64,000 bases of DNA from Acidimicrobiia bacterium (GTDB taxonomy: Bacteria > Actinomycetota > Acidimicrobiia > Spongiisociales > ZC4RG35). The stretch is taken from the NCBI GenBank assembly GCA_050742015.1, contig JBOGEV010000012.1, forward strand, positions 326 through 64,325, read 5' to 3'. Within the stretch, counting starts at the first letter, position 1. Every line of letters begins with the position of its first letter. The notes under the pieces were generated by a model that was not told where the DNA came from, did no database searches, and saw only the letters and a program-made list of their open reading frames with translations. The position numbers were made by a program, and so were the translations under genes. Shown here one piece after another: positions 8,743 to 23,294 of the stretch.

Positions 8743-8972
8743 GATGCGGCCACCTCGTCGGTCGTTTCGGGGTCGATCATTGCCCGGATCCGGGCCACGG
8801 TGAGAGGATCGAAACGGGCCGACTCGGGCAGGGCAACGATCCTGATCAGGTGCTCGTAGTAGTCGGCGGCGGGCAGGCCGAGGCTCAGCTCGATTGCCTG
8901 GTCTTTCGGACCCGGCTCCAGCCACCAGCCTCTCTCGAACTCGAGGACGGCTCGATCCCCATCGCTGAGCAT
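8739..8972 (-). CDS. DUF3263 domain protein
   Basis: 77 aa beginning MLSDGDRAVLEFERGWW... The DUF3263 plus LytR_C pairing is typical of actinobacteria (recollection). Confidence 0.7.
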   Translation of the reverse strand: MLSDGDRAVLEFERGWWLEPGPKDQAIELSLGLPAADYYEHLIRIVALPESARFDPLTVARIRAMIDPETTDEVAAS

Positions 8973-9106
8973 GAGGATGAGGGTATTTCTCGACCTGGAT
9001 TTAGTTGAGGATTTGATCGTGGGCTCGTCACGCGGAGGGAGTAGAGGTGTTACGCCTACCGAGCCAACGGTCGGCGTTTTGCCACCACCTCAACGGGCCG
9101 GGCCGG

Positions 9107-9883
9107 TTAGACGGGCTTGTGGGCTCGGAACGGATAGCCCCAGGTTCCGAATGACCGTGCGTTCCTCTCGCCGTTTGCGCCGGCATAGGTGTCGACTCGA
9201 GGGCCGAACTCGAGCTCGAGGAACCCGACCGCGGTGATGACTGCCTCCCACCCTGCACACGGCAGGGCACCGGCAATTCAGCCGGTCCAGAGGTCGATGT
9301 TCCTTCTCGCCTCCTCCGAGACCGGTTTGTCGACGCAAATGTCGGCGATTTGGAAGCGGCCGCCCGGCTTGAGGGCACGCTCGATCTGTCGGTAGGCGCC
9401 GTATTTGTCGACCGTGAGGTTGAGCACGCCGTTGGAGATGACGAGATCCACCGACTCGGCGTCAACGGGCAGTCGTTCCGCCCGTCCTTCACGAAACTCG
9501 ACATTGGCGAGACCCATCCGATCCGCGCTATGCCGGGCGGCTCCGAGCATTTCGCGTGTCATGTCCACGCCGACCACCCGGCCTTCCGGACCGACGGCCT
9601 TGGCGGCGATCAGGACGTCCACACCGGCTCCCGATCCTACGTCGAGGACGGTTTCGCCCCGTCTCGGCAATCCGAAGTGGAAAGGGTTGGCGACGCCGGC
9701 GAAGGATGCGATCACATCGTCAGGCAAGTCGTCGATGATTGAGTTGTCGTAGCCGACCTGCCGGGCCGCCTCCCGGCCGGTGTGGAAGTGGAACTCGTGC
9801 TCGGGGTTGGTGGCTACCTCGGCGTAATGCTTCTGGATCTCGACCCGTAGTTGGTCCTCGTCGACCGGGATGATGTCAGTCAT
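9107..9883 (-). CDS. ArsM/AS3MT-like SAM-dependent methyltransferase with in-frame UGA (candidate selenocysteine) at 9280..9278
   Basis: SAM motif VLDVGSGAGVD. ATGA overlap with the upstream MFS gene. The frame stays open 56 codons past the TGA and reads DLWTG-[UGA]-IAGALPCAGWEAVITAVGF..., matching the ArsM ..W.xC(I/L)xGAL..AGF.. region. TAA at 9109..9107. If the UGA is a true stop, the product is 9278..9883 (201 aa). Confidence 0.6.
9249..9269 (-). promoter_or_regulatory. SECIS-like stem-loop downstream of the in-frame UGA
   Basis: The mRNA UGCCCUGC-CGUGU-GCAGGGUG forms 6 Watson-Crick plus 2 G-U pairs. The loop spans +20..+24 from the U of UGA, with G/U at +23/+24. Confidence 0.5.
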
Positions 9884-11142
9884 TGCGCACCTTTCGTGAT
9901 GATCTGGGGAAGTGTCTCTCGCATCCGCACGGCGACGTCGAGCCCGCTGACGGCGGTGATGGCGGCCACTGCGACGATGGCGGTTGGAATGGTGTAGAGG
10001 TCGGCTAGTACTCCGGCCAAGACCGCCCCTACCGCGAAGCCGAGGTCCCGCCACAGCCTGTAGACACCTATGGCGGCGCCACGCCAGTAGGGGTGGGCGA
10101 TGTCGCTGACTGCGGCAATGAGAGTGGGGTAGGCCATGGCAGTGCCGGCTCCGAACAGGATGCTTCCCGCCACCCAATACTCGACTTGGCCACCAAGAGC
10201 GATGATGAGAAGCCCGGCTGCTTGGTTGAACTGGCCGAACACGATGAGCAGCTTCCTTCCGATCCGGTCCGACAGTGCGCCGGTGAGGAGCTGGCCGAAT
10301 CCCCAGACAGCTGGGGCAATGGCTACGAGGCCTCCAACTGTGGCGAGGTTGAGCCCGGCGGTGGCGAAGAGGACGGGGAGCAGGCCCCAGGCCATTCCCT
10401 CGTTGAGGTTGTTCACCAAACCGGCCCGACTCGCCGAGGAAAGGCTCCGGTCCCCCCAGCTGGTCAGGGCGAACACCTGCTTGGAGTCGAGGCCACCGTC
10501 GAGGTGCCCGATATGAAGGGCGGCTTCTCGGGTGACGTGGTCACTGGTCTCTCGGACAAAGAGCGCGCTCAGCCCGAGGCCCAGGGCGGCGACCGCAAGG
10601 CCCAGGAAGAATGGGGCGGGTCGGAGTCCCGCGCTCTCGGCGATGGCTCCGGTCGCCCAGGCGACGGCAGCGAGTGCGGCGTAGCCGGCTGCCTCGTTGA
10701 ACCCCATCGCGGTTCCGCGGAGCCGGGGGCCGACCAGGTCGATCTTCATGATCACCGTCACCGACCACGTCAAGCCCTGACTGACCCCCAAGAGAATGTT
10801 GGCTACCAGCACCCATTCCCAGGTCGGAGCCCACATGAGAAGAAGGGGCACAGGGAGCCCGATCAGCCATCCTGCGACAAGGACCGGTTTTCTCCCGTAC
10901 CGGTCCGCCAGATAGCCGGCGAAGAAGTTGACCGCGGCCTTGGAGAGCCCGAACACGACTATGAACGAGACCATTCCGGCATATGCGGCAATCCCGAACT
11001 CGGCCTCCGCGAGCAGGGGGACCACCGTCCGCTCCTGGCCGACCATCCCGCCGACCAGGGCGTTGACCGCCACCAGCAGGAGGAATTGAGGGAGATTCTC
11101 CCGCAGCCCGAGCCGGACCGGTCGTCCGAGCTGATCGGTCAT
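9880..11142 (-). CDS. MFS transporter
   Basis: 420 aa and about 12 TM helices, with MFS loop motifs (GYLADRYGRKPVLVAG; LSDRIGRKLLIV). ATGA overlaps at both ends. The N-terminal 158 codons of the ORF-track version overlap the upstream gene and were trimmed. Confidence 0.85.
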   Translation of the reverse strand: MTDQLGRPVRLGLRENLPQFLLLVAVNALVGGMVGQERTVVPLLAEAEFGIAAYAGMVSFIVVFGLSKAAVNFFAGYLADRYGRKPVLVAGWLIGLPVPLLLMWAPTWEWVLVANILLGVSQGLTWSVTVIMKIDLVGPRLRGTAMGFNEAAGYAALAAVAWATGAIAESAGLRPAPFFLGLAVAALGLGLSALFVRETSDHVTREAALHIGHLDGGLDSKQVFALTSWGDRSLSSASRAGLVNNLNEGMAWGLLPVLFATAGLNLATVGGLVAIAPAVWGFGQLLTGALSDRIGRKLLIVFGQFNQAAGLLIIALGGQVEYWVAGSILFGAGTAMAYPTLIAAVSDIAHPYWRGAAIGVYRLWRDLGFAVGAVLAGVLADLYTIPTAIVAVAAITAVSGLDVAVRMRETLPQIITKGAQ

Positions 11143-12482
11143 GAACCCCCGCTCTTGGTCGAGAGCTGGTCGTGCCCACCCTCGAACACGACCACGTCCT
11201 GACGACCTGCTTTGGCGAGGAGGCTGGCTGCGGTCATGGCTCGCTCCCCATGACCGCAGTGGAGTAGCAACTGACCGCGAGGCAGTTCGGCGGTCGAATC
11301 GACAACCGAGCCGAGCTCGACGTGGACGGCGTCGGGATGGTGTCCCGTCTCGTACTCCGATTCCTGCCTGACATCGAGGATCGACCGCTGCCCGACCCCT
11401 GCCGGATTCCTGGCGACCTCGATCTGCGACACCGGCCGCCCTGCATCGATCCAAGCGGGCAGCCCGCCGGCGAGCAGCCCCGTCAAGTTCTCGAACCCGA
11501 CGGTGAGGGCCGACCAGGTCAGGTCGTGTTCGTCGACCGTCCTGTCGGTGACGAACACCAATGGTGTATCCAAGGGCAAGAGCCAACCGAGCCATGTGGA
11601 GAACGACTCTCGCCACGGGTTGGATATGGATTCAGGCACATGTCCGGCAGAAAAGGCGTCGATGGCGCGCACGTCGATCACCTCGGCGCCATCGGCCATT
11701 GCGGCCTCCACCTCCGAAACCGAAAGCCGCGGCAGGGGTGGAGAGGTGCCGAAGACCCGGGGTCCTCGCCTGTTCAGTTGCCGCAGCTCGAGGAAGTAGG
11801 GGGGATAGCTGCCGTAACCGGCGAGCAGACGCCGAACGAAGGTGTCTTCGTCGGCCTCGCCGGCCATCAACGGGTTGGAGACCTTCTCGGCCCCGATGGT
11901 CGTGGTCCGTTCCGTGTCGCCTCCCACTGAGCAGAACGACCCGGCGCCGTGGGTCGGATAGACGACCAGCTCGTCGGGGAGGGTGAACAATCGCTGCCGG
12001 ATCGACCGGTAGGCCGCCCGCGCCAGCGGCTCGGTCTGGTCGGGGGTGAGAAGGTCGGTGCGAGCCACGCCGCCCGCCATCAGCGTCCCACCCGAGAACA
12101 ACCCGATCTGATGCGAGTCGTCGGAGAGGAGATACGAGAGGTGCTCGGGAGTGTGCCCCGGTGTGGCGATCACCTCCAAGGTCAACCCTCCCAGATCGAC
12201 CTTCTCGCCATCGCTCAACGGCCGATGTGGGAACGCCGCTTGCGAGGCCGCTGGAGCCAGGAGAGTCGCTCCCTCGGCGATCAGCTCACGGCTCCCGGAG
12301 ACGAAGTCGGCATGGAGGTGGGTCTCGACGACGAATCTGGGGCGAAGACGGGCCCGCGCCAGCCGGCGCAGGTATGGACGCGGGTCCCGCTCGGGGTCCA
12401 CCACCATCGCTCCACCGTCGCCCAAATCCACGACGTAGGAGCTGTTGCCCAGACCTTCGTCGACGATCGGCGTCACCACCAT
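11139..12482 (-). CDS. MBL-fold metallo-hydrolase fused to two rhodanese-like domains (CstB/Blh-like persulfide dioxygenase-sulfurtransferase candidate)
   Basis: N-terminal metallo-beta-lactamase motif ETHLHADFVSG and TPGHTPEH. The C-terminal rhodanese domains end in the active-site loop LLHCGHGERA. Confidence 0.8.
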   Translation of the reverse strand: MVVTPIVDEGLGNSSYVVDLGDGGAMVVDPERDPRPYLRRLARARLRPRFVVETHLHADFVSGSRELIAEGATLLAPAASQAAFPHRPLSDGEKVDLGGLTLEVIATPGHTPEHLSYLLSDDSHQIGLFSGGTLMAGGVARTDLLTPDQTEPLARAAYRSIRQRLFTLPDELVVYPTHGAGSFCSVGGDTERTTTIGAEKVSNPLMAGEADEDTFVRRLLAGYGSYPPYFLELRQLNRRGPRVFGTSPPLPRLSVSEVEAAMADGAEVIDVRAIDAFSAGHVPESISNPWRESFSTWLGWLLPLDTPLVFVTDRTVDEHDLTWSALTVGFENLTGLLAGGLPAWIDAGRPVSQIEVARNPAGVGQRSILDVRQESEYETGHHPDAVHVELGSVVDSTAELPRGQLLLHCGHGERAMTAASLLAKAGRQDVVVFEGGHDQLSTKSGGS

Positions 12483-12554: not shown

Positions 12555-12574
12555 GCTGATCGGGGTAAGAAAAG

Positions 12575-13276
12575 ATGCTGGAAACGGAGCCATCGACGGA
12601 TCCCAAGAGGAAGGCGAAGGACGCCATGTTCGAGGGGTTCGCCTCGATCGCGGCCGCGCTGGCCTCGGGTCGCCGCGTCGAGATAGTCGAGGTACTCGCC
12701 CAAGGGGAGCGAACGGTCGAAGATGTCGCCCAGGCAATAGGCCAGTCGGTGGCCAACACGTCTCACCATCTGCGGACACTGGCTCGGGCCGGCCTCGTTT
12801 CCACCCGCCGCCAGGGAAATCACATCTACTACCGCCTGGCATCGGAGTCGGTTGCCGACGTCTGGCTCGCCATCCGAAACCTGGCAGCCGACCGTCTGGA
12901 AGCAATGGACCAACTCGTCCATGCCTATCTCGGCGATCGAACCGAGCTGGAGGTGATCGGGGTCGAGGACTTGAGGGAGCGCCTGCGGACCGGTGAGGTG
13001 GTGTTGATCGATGTCCGACCCGAGCCCGAGTACCAGGCCGGCCATCTGCCTGGCGCCGTGTCGGTGCCGCCCGATGACTTCTCGCGGCTCGACGCCCTAC
13101 TCGAGATCCTCCCTCCCGACCGCGACATCGTGGCCTATTGCCGGGGCCCGTACTGCCTCTACGCCGACAGCGCAATCCGATACCTGGCCGGCCGAGGCCG
13201 GACCGCCGCTCGGCTCGAACAGGGAATTCCCGAGTGGCGACGCGGAGGCGGGCTCGTGGAGACCCAGTCCACTTAA
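12575..13276 (+). CDS. ArsR/SmtB-family transcriptional regulator fused to a rhodanese domain
   Basis: Winged-HTH ArsR core (RVEIVEVLAQGERTVEDVAQAIGQSVANTSHHLRTLARAGLV). C-terminal rhodanese domain with active-site CRGPYC. Confidence 0.85.
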   Translation: MLETEPSTDPKRKAKDAMFEGFASIAAALASGRRVEIVEVLAQGERTVEDVAQAIGQSVANTSHHLRTLARAGLVSTRRQGNHIYYRLASESVADVWLAIRNLAADRLEAMDQLVHAYLGDRTELEVIGVEDLRERLRTGEVVLIDVRPEPEYQAGHLPGAVSVPPDDFSRLDALLEILPPDRDIVAYCRGPYCLYADSAIRYLAGRGRTAARLEQGIPEWRRGGGLVETQST

Positions 13277-22028: not shown

Positions 22029-23294
22029 TCACTCCTTGATGTACGGCTGGCCGTCGGCGGCGGGGGGTCGGGCGGCGCCGACGACGCCGGCCACGACGAC
22101 GATGGTCACCAGATAGGGGGCCATCAGCAGGAACTCGGAGGGGATGCCGGAGTCGAGGATGGCCAGCTTCACCTGGAGCGCGTCGGCGAAGCCGAAAACC
22201 AAGGCCGCGGCCAGGGCCCCGACCGGGTGCCAGCGGCCGAAGATCATGGCCGCCAGCCCGATGTACCCCCGACCACCGGTCATGTTCTCGTTGAAGGCGC
22301 CGACCGATCCCAAGGTGAAGTAGGCGCCGCCGAAGCCGGCGATCATGCCGCCCAGGATCACGTTGACGTATCGCCTGTGGAATACGTTGATCCCCAGGGT
22401 GTCCGCCGCCTTGGGATGCTCGCCGACCGCCCGGGAGCGAAGGCCCCACCGGGTCTTGAATAGGCCGTAGGTCATGACGGCCACGATGATGAACATGGCA
22501 TAGACGAAGATGTTCTGCTCGAAGAACAGCCGACCGAGAACCGGGATCTCGCTCAGGATCGGGATCGGGATCGGCCCCAGCACCCCAGGGCTGTTGTACT
22601 CGGCGGAGTTCTCAACCAAAACCTGGGCGCTGAGAAACGAGGTCAGGCCCAGGGCAAAGATGTTGATCACCACACCGGCGATGATCTGATCGACCCGGTA
22701 CTTGATGGCGAGGACAGCCAGCCCCGCCGCCATCAAACCGCCGGCGAGCGTGGCCCCGAGTATCCCCACGAACGGGCCGACAATGGTTCCCATCACCGCG
22801 CCGGCGAAGGCACCGGTGAGCAACATCCCCTCGATCCCGATGTTGATCACGGCGACCCGCTCACACATGACACCTGACAGAGCGCCGAACGCGATCGGAG
22901 TCGCGGCCCTGATCGAGCCGTCGAGCATCCCGACCAGGCTGAGCGATTTTCCGGCGGCGGCGAAACCGAGGAAGGCGAAGGCGAATATCCCCAGGGCGAT
23001 GGCCAAGGCCACGTTGCTCCACCGACCGATCCCCCTGGTCAGCTCCCACCCGCCGAGGAACCCGAATACGACCGCCGAGAATGTGGCCAGCCCCTGGGAG
23101 GAGACCGTCCAATCCAGGTCACCGGCCACTTCCCCGAGTCGAAAGACGACGTCGCCTTCGGTCCCCGATGCCAGGAAGGCGTAGGTGAGGACGGCCAGGA
23201 TCAGATAGACGATCCCCCTGATTCGGGCACGCCGCACCTCGGCCGGAGCCCGAACCAGTGTCGGCGTGTCGGCTACGGCCGTCATGTCGACCAA
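22029..23294 (-). CDS. ABC transporter permease (BMP/nucleoside-type, NupQ/YufQ-like)
   Basis: 421-aa polytopic permease, last gene of a four-gene BMP-type ABC operon. Confidence 0.8.
   Translation of the reverse strand: MVDMTAVADTPTLVRAPAEVRRARIRGIVYLILAVLTYAFLASGTEGDVVFRLGEVAGDLDWTVSSQGLATFSAVVFGFLGGWELTRGIGRWSNVALAIALGIFAFAFLGFAAAGKSLSLVGMLDGSIRAATPIAFGALSGVMCERVAVINIGIEGMLLTGAFAGAVMGTIVGPFVGILGATLAGGLMAAGLAVLAIKYRVDQIIAGVVINIFALGLTSFLSAQVLVENSAEYNSPGVLGPIPIPILSEIPVLGRLFFEQNIFVYAMFIIVAVMTYGLFKTRWGLRSRAVGEHPKAADTLGINVFHRRYVNVILGGMIAGFGGAYFTLGSVGAFNENMTGGRGYIGLAAMIFGRWHPVGALAAALVFGFADALQVKLAILDSGIPSEFLLMAPYLVTIVVVAGVVGAARPPAADGQPYIKE

Follow-up and report, generated by a model that had tools for sequence, protein, structure and literature searches.

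On the minus strand of the 64-kb stretch of bacterial DNA described here (the window), positions 9883..9107 carry what is very probably a genuine selenoprotein gene with a bacterial selenocysteine insertion sequence (SECIS), its in-frame UGA being read as selenocysteine (Sec). Taken as a whole, the data are best explained by a 258-residue, Sec-containing methyltransferase of the ArsM/AS3MT family whose UGA would be decoded through the SECIS, a reading which is based on sequence comparison and in which we have good confidence. The selenoprotein family is a known one, to which the gene adds a new member so far unannotated. Its features are the following:

9883..9107, minus strand: predicted selenoprotein gene, class I S-adenosylmethionine (SAM)-dependent methyltransferase of the ArsM/AS3MT family, 258 residues including Sec
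9281..9883, minus strand: part 1 of the methyltransferase coding sequence (CDS), codons 1–201 (MTDIIP...DLWTG), with an ArsM-like amino-terminal region and a SAM-binding Rossmann core
9278..9280, minus strand: in-frame UGA, predicted Sec codon (U202), equivalent to CmArsM C224 and human AS3MT C206
9249..9269, minus strand: SECIS-type hairpin within the CDS (from the fold, comparison with relatives and RNAalifold)
9110..9277, minus strand: post-UGA coding extension, 56 codons (IAGALPCAGW...GYPFRAHKPV; from homology and the synonymous fraction)
9107..9109, minus strand: true stop codon TAA; relatives end at the same site or within a few codons

The start codon (ATG, 9883..9881) overlaps the TGA stop codon of the upstream transporter gene as ATGA. 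After the sequence ...RRNIDLWTG the frame meets a TGA (9280..9278) and then stays open for 56 further codons (IAGALPCAGWEAVITAVGFLELEFGPRVDTYAGANGERNARSFGTWGYPFRAHKPV) until the TAA at 9109..9107; all of these coordinates agree with those of a first-pass annotation of the window. The peptide spanning the predicted Sec is DLWTG-U-IAGALPCAGWEAVITAVGFLELEFGPR, and the full-length product would have a mass of about 28 kDa, compared with about 22 kDa for the 201-residue product. A Pfam profile search with the window protein finds a class I SAM methyltransferase domain, and the SAM-binding motif is VLDVGSGAGVD. G or C is present at the third position of 42 of the 56 extension codons, as had previously been counted by hand; the recomputed fraction (GC3) of 0.75 is near the 0.80 of the upstream CDS, with 0.60 and 0.65 in the two other frames of the extension and 0.55 just beyond the TAA. 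As read from its sequence, the extension contains no in-frame ATG, GTG or TTG, and thus has no start codon of its own.

Conservation across the UGA codon

The homologue search took in 5.8 billion proteins and its hits, numbered P0001–P0120, fall into two tiers. About 100 clusters (clustered at 90% identity) are 71–91% identical to the window protein and all stop at residue 201 or 202, while proteins of the next tier are 53–58% identical, 258–266 residues long and cover 97–100% of the read-through protein. No full-length version of more than 70% identity was returned from these 5.8 billion proteins, all closer matches ending at the UGA. In the 15 full-length homologues (P0106–P0120), an invariant cysteine is located at the UGA column (DLWTDCIAGAL), and their carboxy-termini align with the whole extension (VDTFGGAPGExNARSF..GYPFxARKP). 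The column is thus either Cys or TGA and the extension is similar to the Cys-type carboxy-termini, in line with the selenoprotein proposed in the first-pass annotation.

In 80 loci of species-representative genomes, the codon at this column is TGA in 25 and TGC or TGT in 46, with nine loci left unplaced by simple extrapolation; TGA is present in 31 of the 86 loci that were fetched. The TGA loci come from Acidimicrobiia, Acidobacteriaceae (Acidobacteriota), Anaerolineales, Dehalococcoidia (Chloroflexota), Deltaproteobacteria, Deferrimicrobiaceae, Alphaproteobacteria, Gaiellaceae, Gemmatimonadota, Mycobacteriales, Desulfobacteraceae and the Firmicute Falseniella ignava, and in them the frame past the TGA is open and homologous. 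When the codons of 11 distinct close relatives are compared, a fraction of 0.60 of the differences is synonymous in the extension and 0.63 in the upstream CDS, compared with 0.08–0.12 in the wrong frames of the extension. By this measure the extension is under purifying selection, and in frame only. In one further close relative (L086:9409-9600, on ENA contig ctg213018l), the frame of the tail shifts once about 33 residues of the extension have been read (…DTYAGARRREKRQNLWYLG…). Since neighbouring genes on the same contig are also split, this is consistent with indel errors of long reads and not with biology.

An AlphaFold (AF2) model was made of the Cys homologue P0108, which stands in for the window protein (predicted local distance difference test score 84.5, predicted template-modelling score 0.88). 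Past the Cys column, the model contains a helix (residues 208–217), a beta-strand (221–229), a second helix (239–243) and a second beta-strand (246–254). We take the two strands to be the last two of the central sheet of the class I methyltransferase fold; a product of 201 residues would, according to the model, be without both of them. The pairing of Cys with Sec and the conservation of the TGA, the purifying selection, the absence of a separate start codon and this structural need together argue for read-through of the UGA.

The hairpin and the decoding of UGA

RNAfold predicts an 8-bp stem past the UGA, in which nucleotides +12..+19 are paired with +25..+32 (9269..9249, the U of UGA being +1), closed by the apical loop CGUGU (+20..+24). 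The loop has a G at +23 and a U at +24, and a weaker lower stem extends the fold to about 9277..9241. The eight pairs, the loop and the placement of G23 and U24 reported in the first-pass annotation are thereby reproduced. In the numbering of the E. coli fdhF SECIS, positions +23/+24 are those of its SelB-contacting loop bases. The two elements are alike in that the window hairpin also starts about 11 nt past the UGA and has G/U at +23/+24, while their sequences are unrelated and the bulged U of the fdhF upper stem is not evident in the window hairpin.

The folding energy of the whole region gave only a weak difference between Sec- and Cys-type genes (minimum free energy, p=0.10), and a position-restricted test was used instead, limited to single hairpins close to the expected position in 26 TGA-type and 46 Cys-type sequences. 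The mean local hairpin energy is -13.6 kcal/mol for the TGA type versus -9.1 kcal/mol for the Cys type (one-sided Mann-Whitney p = 4e-5). A loop is located at +20..+24 or +21..+23 in 21 of the 26 TGA-type sequences, while the hairpin positions of the Cys type are scattered. The TGA-type loops always contain a G, being CGUGU/CGUGC, GGA or, in the Desulfobacteraceae type, AGGUGA. When 21 TGA-type sequences are aligned without gaps, 92.1% of the cells of the 8-bp stem are paired, a share that falls to 24–56% when the partners are slid by one to three columns. Double-sided changes are present in four stem pairs, with a covariation score of 0.255 versus 0.06–0.10 and none of 500 shuffles reaching the observed score, and the same helix is predicted independently by RNAalifold.

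The stem-loop also encodes the peptide LPCAGW of most TGA-type members; members with the GGA loop have LLEAEL, and the Cys-type proteins vary. The loop GU is provided by the UGU/UGC codon of Cys208 (Pro207-Cys208, window 9257-9262), a residue absent from the TGA-type members with the GGA loop. Conservation of Cys208 and of LPCAGW may be driven by the RNA rather than by the protein. During translation, the hairpin, starting 11 nt past the UGA, would recruit SelB with Sec-tRNA(Sec) to the ribosome, the dependence on SelB being taken from the established bacterial mechanism.

Several observations weigh against a selenoprotein here. Neither selA, selB, selD nor a tRNA-Sec gene was found within the 64-kb window by a tRNA scan and profile scans of about 24 open reading frames (ORFs), the tRNA scan yielding two tRNA-Thr genes only. 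As a single sequence, the hairpin is unremarkable for DNA with the 65% GC of the window (z = -1.68; 14 of 200 shuffles fold equally well), and because its fold is not exceptional it needs the comparative support described above. Part of the stem covariation could track the peptide variants LPCAGW and LLEAEL, since the stem lies within coding sequence. Finally, Rfam gives no match to a SECIS family in the window, and a permissive scan of 9180..9320 returns a spurious microRNA match (E = 0.28); bacterial SECIS elements are poorly covered in Rfam.

If the UGA were a genuine stop, the product would have 201 residues and the 56 codons beyond it would be an untranslated or decayed remnant. Such a stop is what all gene callers place, at 201–202 amino acids, TGA is the commonest stop codon in the window, and the lack of Sec machinery within its 64 kb would fit. 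We nevertheless regard it as very improbable, given that the extension shows the synonymous/non-synonymous pattern of the upstream CDS in this frame only, is homologous to Cys-type carboxy-termini across phyla and contains the two strands modelled past the Cys column, and that a position-conserved, co-varying hairpin is present past the UGA only in TGA-type genes. Less credible still is that the TGA, one base away from TGC or TGT, arose through faulty sequencing or assembly or through a recent nonsense change, leaving a pseudogene where a Cys-type enzyme had been encoded: assemblies made independently share this TGA, in about 100 clusters and in 31 fetched loci that represent at least nine lineages, and the SECIS hairpin co-occurs with it. 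The selenoprotein reading put forward in the first-pass annotation (an ArsM-like enzyme whose catalytic-Cys column holds a UGA, with a SECIS after it) is, for its part, supported by every sequence-based test that was run.

Outside the window, a Sec tRNA gene (tRNA-SeC, anticodon TCA, 8914..8993) is located 1 kb upstream of the Sec-type methyltransferase of an alphaproteobacterial metagenome-assembled genome (L012, JAJFGG010000073.1). On its other side it is flanked by a tyrosine integrase and a P4-family primase (region L012:7459-8993). This tRNA-Sec gene thus seems to be the integration site of a genomic island, and a sel operon beside it can be ruled out, its neighbours being the integrase and the P4-type primase. 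By their assignment, the closest relatives of this gene belong to Acidimicrobiia. Actinomarina is low in GC, and the window, with its 65% GC, presumably comes from a lineage of Acidimicrobiia other than Actinomarinales. Within the latter order of the class, selA, selB, selC and selD are reported to be present in 84 of 84 complete genomes (2026 preprint).

Eight further candidates for in-frame TGA genes in the window were selected by GC3. Those at 22029 and 46170 were scanned and have no family support; the remaining ones look like antisense frames or adjacent genes in the same frame.

Relation to ArsM and to known selenoproteins

The closest solved structures by sequence are CrArsM, CmArsM and human AS3MT (phmmer against the PDB; E about 1e-25 for the first two, with 3e-25 quoted). 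When aligned to the solved ArsM structures, U202 (LWTG-U-IAGAL) is opposite the Cys of GECLGGAL, which is CmArsM C224; this confirms the junction motif LW..C..GAL and the C206/C224 column of the first-pass annotation. V64 in FAGVANP is aligned with the Cys of FYGCG (CmArsM C72) and G152 in SNGV with the Cys of SNCV (CmArsM C174), so that the equivalents of C72 (GCGNP) and C174 are not present. Their absence had been noted before for FAGVANP and SNGV, and it holds clade-wide, in 27 of 27 loci; the distance from SNGV to the UGA is 50 residues, also as described before. In one pairwise alignment, to CrArsM, the fourth conserved ArsM Cys (TSAC) is opposite Gly36, beside the sequence FHFHTGR, and this Cys also looks to be replaced in the window clade. 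FHFHTGR (residues 31–37, window 9770-9790, containing His32 and His34) does not vary between the window protein and any of the 15 Cys-type homologues of full length. With its two histidines at the place of the fourth ArsM Cys, it is a candidate replacement ligand site.

Foldseek with the P0108 model places CmArsM, CrArsM and human AS3MT on top, with template-modelling scores of 0.67–0.72 (0.71 to 4fr0) and about 33% identity. In these structures (4fr0, 5evj, 8xt7) and in the window protein, the SAM motif and the LW..C(I/L)xGAL segment are conserved. The site of the solved enzymes is made up of three or four Cys, while the window protein keeps only the C224 equivalent, as Sec. The solved enzymes also possess an extra carboxy-terminal domain, with target lengths of 300–330 residues versus 258, and they use a disulfide cascade.

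The three Cys columns (C72, C174 and C224) were cross-tabulated over the 86 loci:

C72 Cys, C174 Cys, C224 Cys: 44 loci
C72 Cys, C174 Cys, C224 Sec: 4 loci (L030, L046, L061, L066)
C72 Cys, C174 Cys, C224 column not resolved: 9 loci
C72 not Cys, C174 Cys, C224 Cys: 2 loci
C72 V/T/I, C174 Gly, C224 Sec: 27 loci, the class of the window

The Cys-type proteins P0106–P0120 also carry FAGVANP and SNGV. An extra Cys at position 183 (ADICVD) is present only in the Acidimicrobiia group and L008.

Sec at this column is known. Reviews that cite Fomenko et al. 2007 (Science 315:387) count arsenite methyltransferase among the prokaryotic selenoprotein families with experimental verification, its motif being UxxG, and the GOS selenoproteome paper (2008) counts 8 Sec and 245 Cys sequences of "arsenite S-adenosylmethyltransferase (PRK11873)". 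The first-pass annotation had known of no characterised enzyme of this kind. At the family level this is wrong, because the Sec-ArsM family, the GOS counts and the NCBIfam models exist: Sec at the same column, as UxxG, has been in the literature since 2007 and is also represented in NCBIfam. The present result therefore confirms and refines prior knowledge, both the selenoprotein family and the recoding mechanism having been known already.

The canonical Sec-containing arsenite methyltransferases (PRK11873/NF008823) share with the window protein the fold family, the Sec column and a hairpin directly past the UGA. Around the Sec, L030, L046, L061 and L066 have U-V-S-G or U-V-A-G, while the window protein has U-I-A-G. 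They differ from it in retaining the C72 and C174 cysteines, which are V/T/I and Gly in the window clade, and the window protein has a short carboxy-terminal region, of 56 residues past the Sec. The window clade scores under every curated ArsM cut-off; against NF008823 (arsenite methyltransferase), the window protein reaches 210.1 bits, below the cut-off of 263. The top NCBIfam matches are the fusion models NF041537 (ArsM/AhpD; 231 bits, cut-off 510), NF041536 (ArsM/DUF2284; 216, cut-off 575) and NF047649 (methyltransferase/UXPK-star; 219, cut-off 460), which share the UxxG Sec motif. The matches to these models span the methyltransferase part only (residues 3–226). The window protein is without AhpD, DUF2284 and UXPK-stop, and it has one Sec where theirs are two or three.

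The enzyme of Thermus thermophilus, TtArsM, is reported to be a single-Cys As(III) methyltransferase, with His proposed as the other ligands (mBio 2021, PMC8649762). It is ArsM-related, has one Cys and is linked to an ArsR/SmtB regulator, as the window clade has one chalcogen ligand and invariant His (FHFHTGR), a likeness in site and regulation. TtArsM differs in keeping the amino-terminal, C72-type Cys instead of the C224-type one, and it is no selenoprotein. The first-pass annotation had taken the single selenol as an argument for a substrate other than As(III); in view of TtArsM, this step is at most tentative.

The close homologues P0001–P0105 (for instance P0046, P0055 and P0081) are called as proteins of 201–202 amino acids and named 'methyltransferase domain-containing protein' or 'arsenite methyltransferase'. 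Because these calls end at the UGA, the records lack the active-site residue together with the final 56 residues of the protein, and it is clear that the public gene records of the clade are mis-annotated. The gene calls of P0007, P0021, P0068, P0098 and P0104 are over-extended at the amino-terminus too. Among L081-L086, several relatives have genes for a transposase or an integrase on the flanks of the methyltransferase gene (rve, DEDD_Tnp_IS110, Transposase_20), which fits the patchy distribution over multiple phyla and suggests horizontal transfer.

Gene neighbourhood and possible substrate

In the window, three co-directional genes follow one another in the order metallo-beta-lactamase (MBL)-rhodanese, major facilitator superfamily (MFS) transporter and methyltransferase, with a regulator gene on the opposite strand:

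11139..12482, minus strand: MBL-fold protein (GloB/persulfide-dioxygenase-like) with two rhodanese domains, first gene of the apparent operon (Pfam Lactamase_B and Rhodanese)
9880..11106, minus strand: MFS transporter, directly upstream of the methyltransferase and coupled to it through the ATGA overlap (Pfam MFS_1, 1e-40)
12569..13276 stop-to-stop, first Met about 12575, plus strand: ArsR/SmtB-type helix-turn-helix (HTH) regulator fused to rhodanese, divergent (Pfam HTH_5/HTH_20 and Rhodanese; NF033788 above cut-off)

The MBL-fold protein has weak NCBIfam matches to GloB/Blh models, under cut-off, and a remnant of its gene is present in L014. The HTH domain of the regulator is without Cys, its sole two Cys being those of the rhodanese loop CRGPYC, and the regulator may therefore sense via its rhodanese module. 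It has weak matches, all under cut-offs, to TsoR, a regulator from selenoprotein neighbourhoods, and to models of rhodanese selenoproteins. The rhodanese domains were considered as Acr2-type arsenate reductases and rejected as such: their loops are CRGPYC and CGHGER and not HCX5R.

ArsR-rhodanese homologues adjoin the orthologue in L008, L013, L014 and L017, and a homologue of the MFS gene does so in L014 and L017. Among the 73 nearest-neighbour ORFs of 20 clade loci, Rhodanese is found five times, ArsR HTH four times, MFS three times and other methyltransferases three times, with no recurrent ars genes (arsB/acr3/arsC). One of the 73 is a DUF3179 protein, DUF3179 being listed among the known selenoprotein families in reviews. 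The idea of a conserved operon was abandoned, the close relatives L081-L086 being without the window's neighbours. Cys-type members (L087:4577-5734, L092:4708-5898 and relatives) directly follow genes for an extracytoplasmic function (ECF) sigma factor, a zf-HC2 anti-sigma factor and a methyltransferase-cupin fusion of about 390 residues, and the MFS genes found by Cys-type members are not homologous to that of the window. Just downstream of the methyltransferase are DUF3263/NapA-like and LytR_C genes. Window positions 14448-57998 form a housekeeping block, with the two tRNA-Thr genes, a SpoU-type methylase, CysS, DisA, RadA, ABC transporter genes, a ClpC-like ATPase, LysS, FtsH, TopA and a PolX/PHP polymerase.

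In the mechanism that we propose, Sec202 would occupy the metalloid-binding Cys position, beside the methyl group of SAM. The lone selenolate would tether a soft, thiophilic substrate by a single Se-X bond, SAM would methylate this substrate, and the divergent ArsR-rhodanese regulator would control the operon. As the substrate class, sulfane-sulfur, selenium or tellurium species are tentatively favoured, the alternative being a trivalent arsenical that is already partly methylated. Sulfane sulfur or selenium is what the rhodanese-rich module points to, while the ArsM ancestry points to methylated arsenicals, together with the statement, in PMC3877260, that trivalent dimethylated arsenic, DMA(III), requires one thiolate ligand only.

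The competing view of function is that of a plain ArsM, which would detoxify As(III) in the canonical manner with Sec as one ligand and with the invariant His32/His34 or small thiols in place of the missing Cys. In sequence as in structure, ArsM/AS3MT proteins are the best matches throughout, the Sec is at an As-binding position, where it is also found in canonical ArsM (L030, L046, L061, L066), and the ArsR/SmtB-family regulator and the coupled, efflux-type MFS gene resemble small ars operons. TtArsM, with one Cys and two His, is reported to methylate As(III) (PMC8649762), but its single Cys is the amino-terminal one and not that of the C224 type. Moreover, the equivalents of C72 and C174, the defining As(III) ligands, are absent from all 27 clade loci and from the Cys-type members, the NF008823 score is 210 against a cut-off of 263, arsB/acr3/arsC do not recur in the neighbour tally, and the only Cys of the regulator are in the rhodanese loop CRGPYC and not in the HTH domain. 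On balance, we consider a plain ArsM unlikely. Two points weigh, in turn, against the sulfur or selenium chemistry tentatively preferred here: the operon context is limited to about 5 of the 21 clade loci, the close relatives often being solitary or located by transposases, and As(III) methylation by the single-Cys TtArsM leaves room for a role in arsenic.

The most far-reaching interpretation, which we regard as possible and somewhat doubtful, is that the clade consists of distinct, widely transferred single-selenol (or single-thiol) methyltransferases that are not arsenite methyltransferases, and that it serves chalcogen or metalloid methylation and volatilisation under ArsR-rhodanese control. 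If this is true, it would be an undescribed enzyme activity, hidden by annotation as a 201-residue fragment, in which the tethered species would be, for example, sulfane sulfur or selenium handed over by a rhodanese, or else an arsenical with two methyl groups. The clade is a candidate for the methylation of sulfur, selenium, tellurium or organoarsenic species for which there is no assigned gene family. Correcting the UGA-truncated records is important when selenoproteomes are counted in Acidimicrobiia and in other environmental phyla, and surveys of arsenic cycling based on arsM could wrongly count or discard the genes of the clade. As it keeps one ArsM metalloid ligand, usually as Sec, the clade is a good test case for a single selenolate beside SAM.

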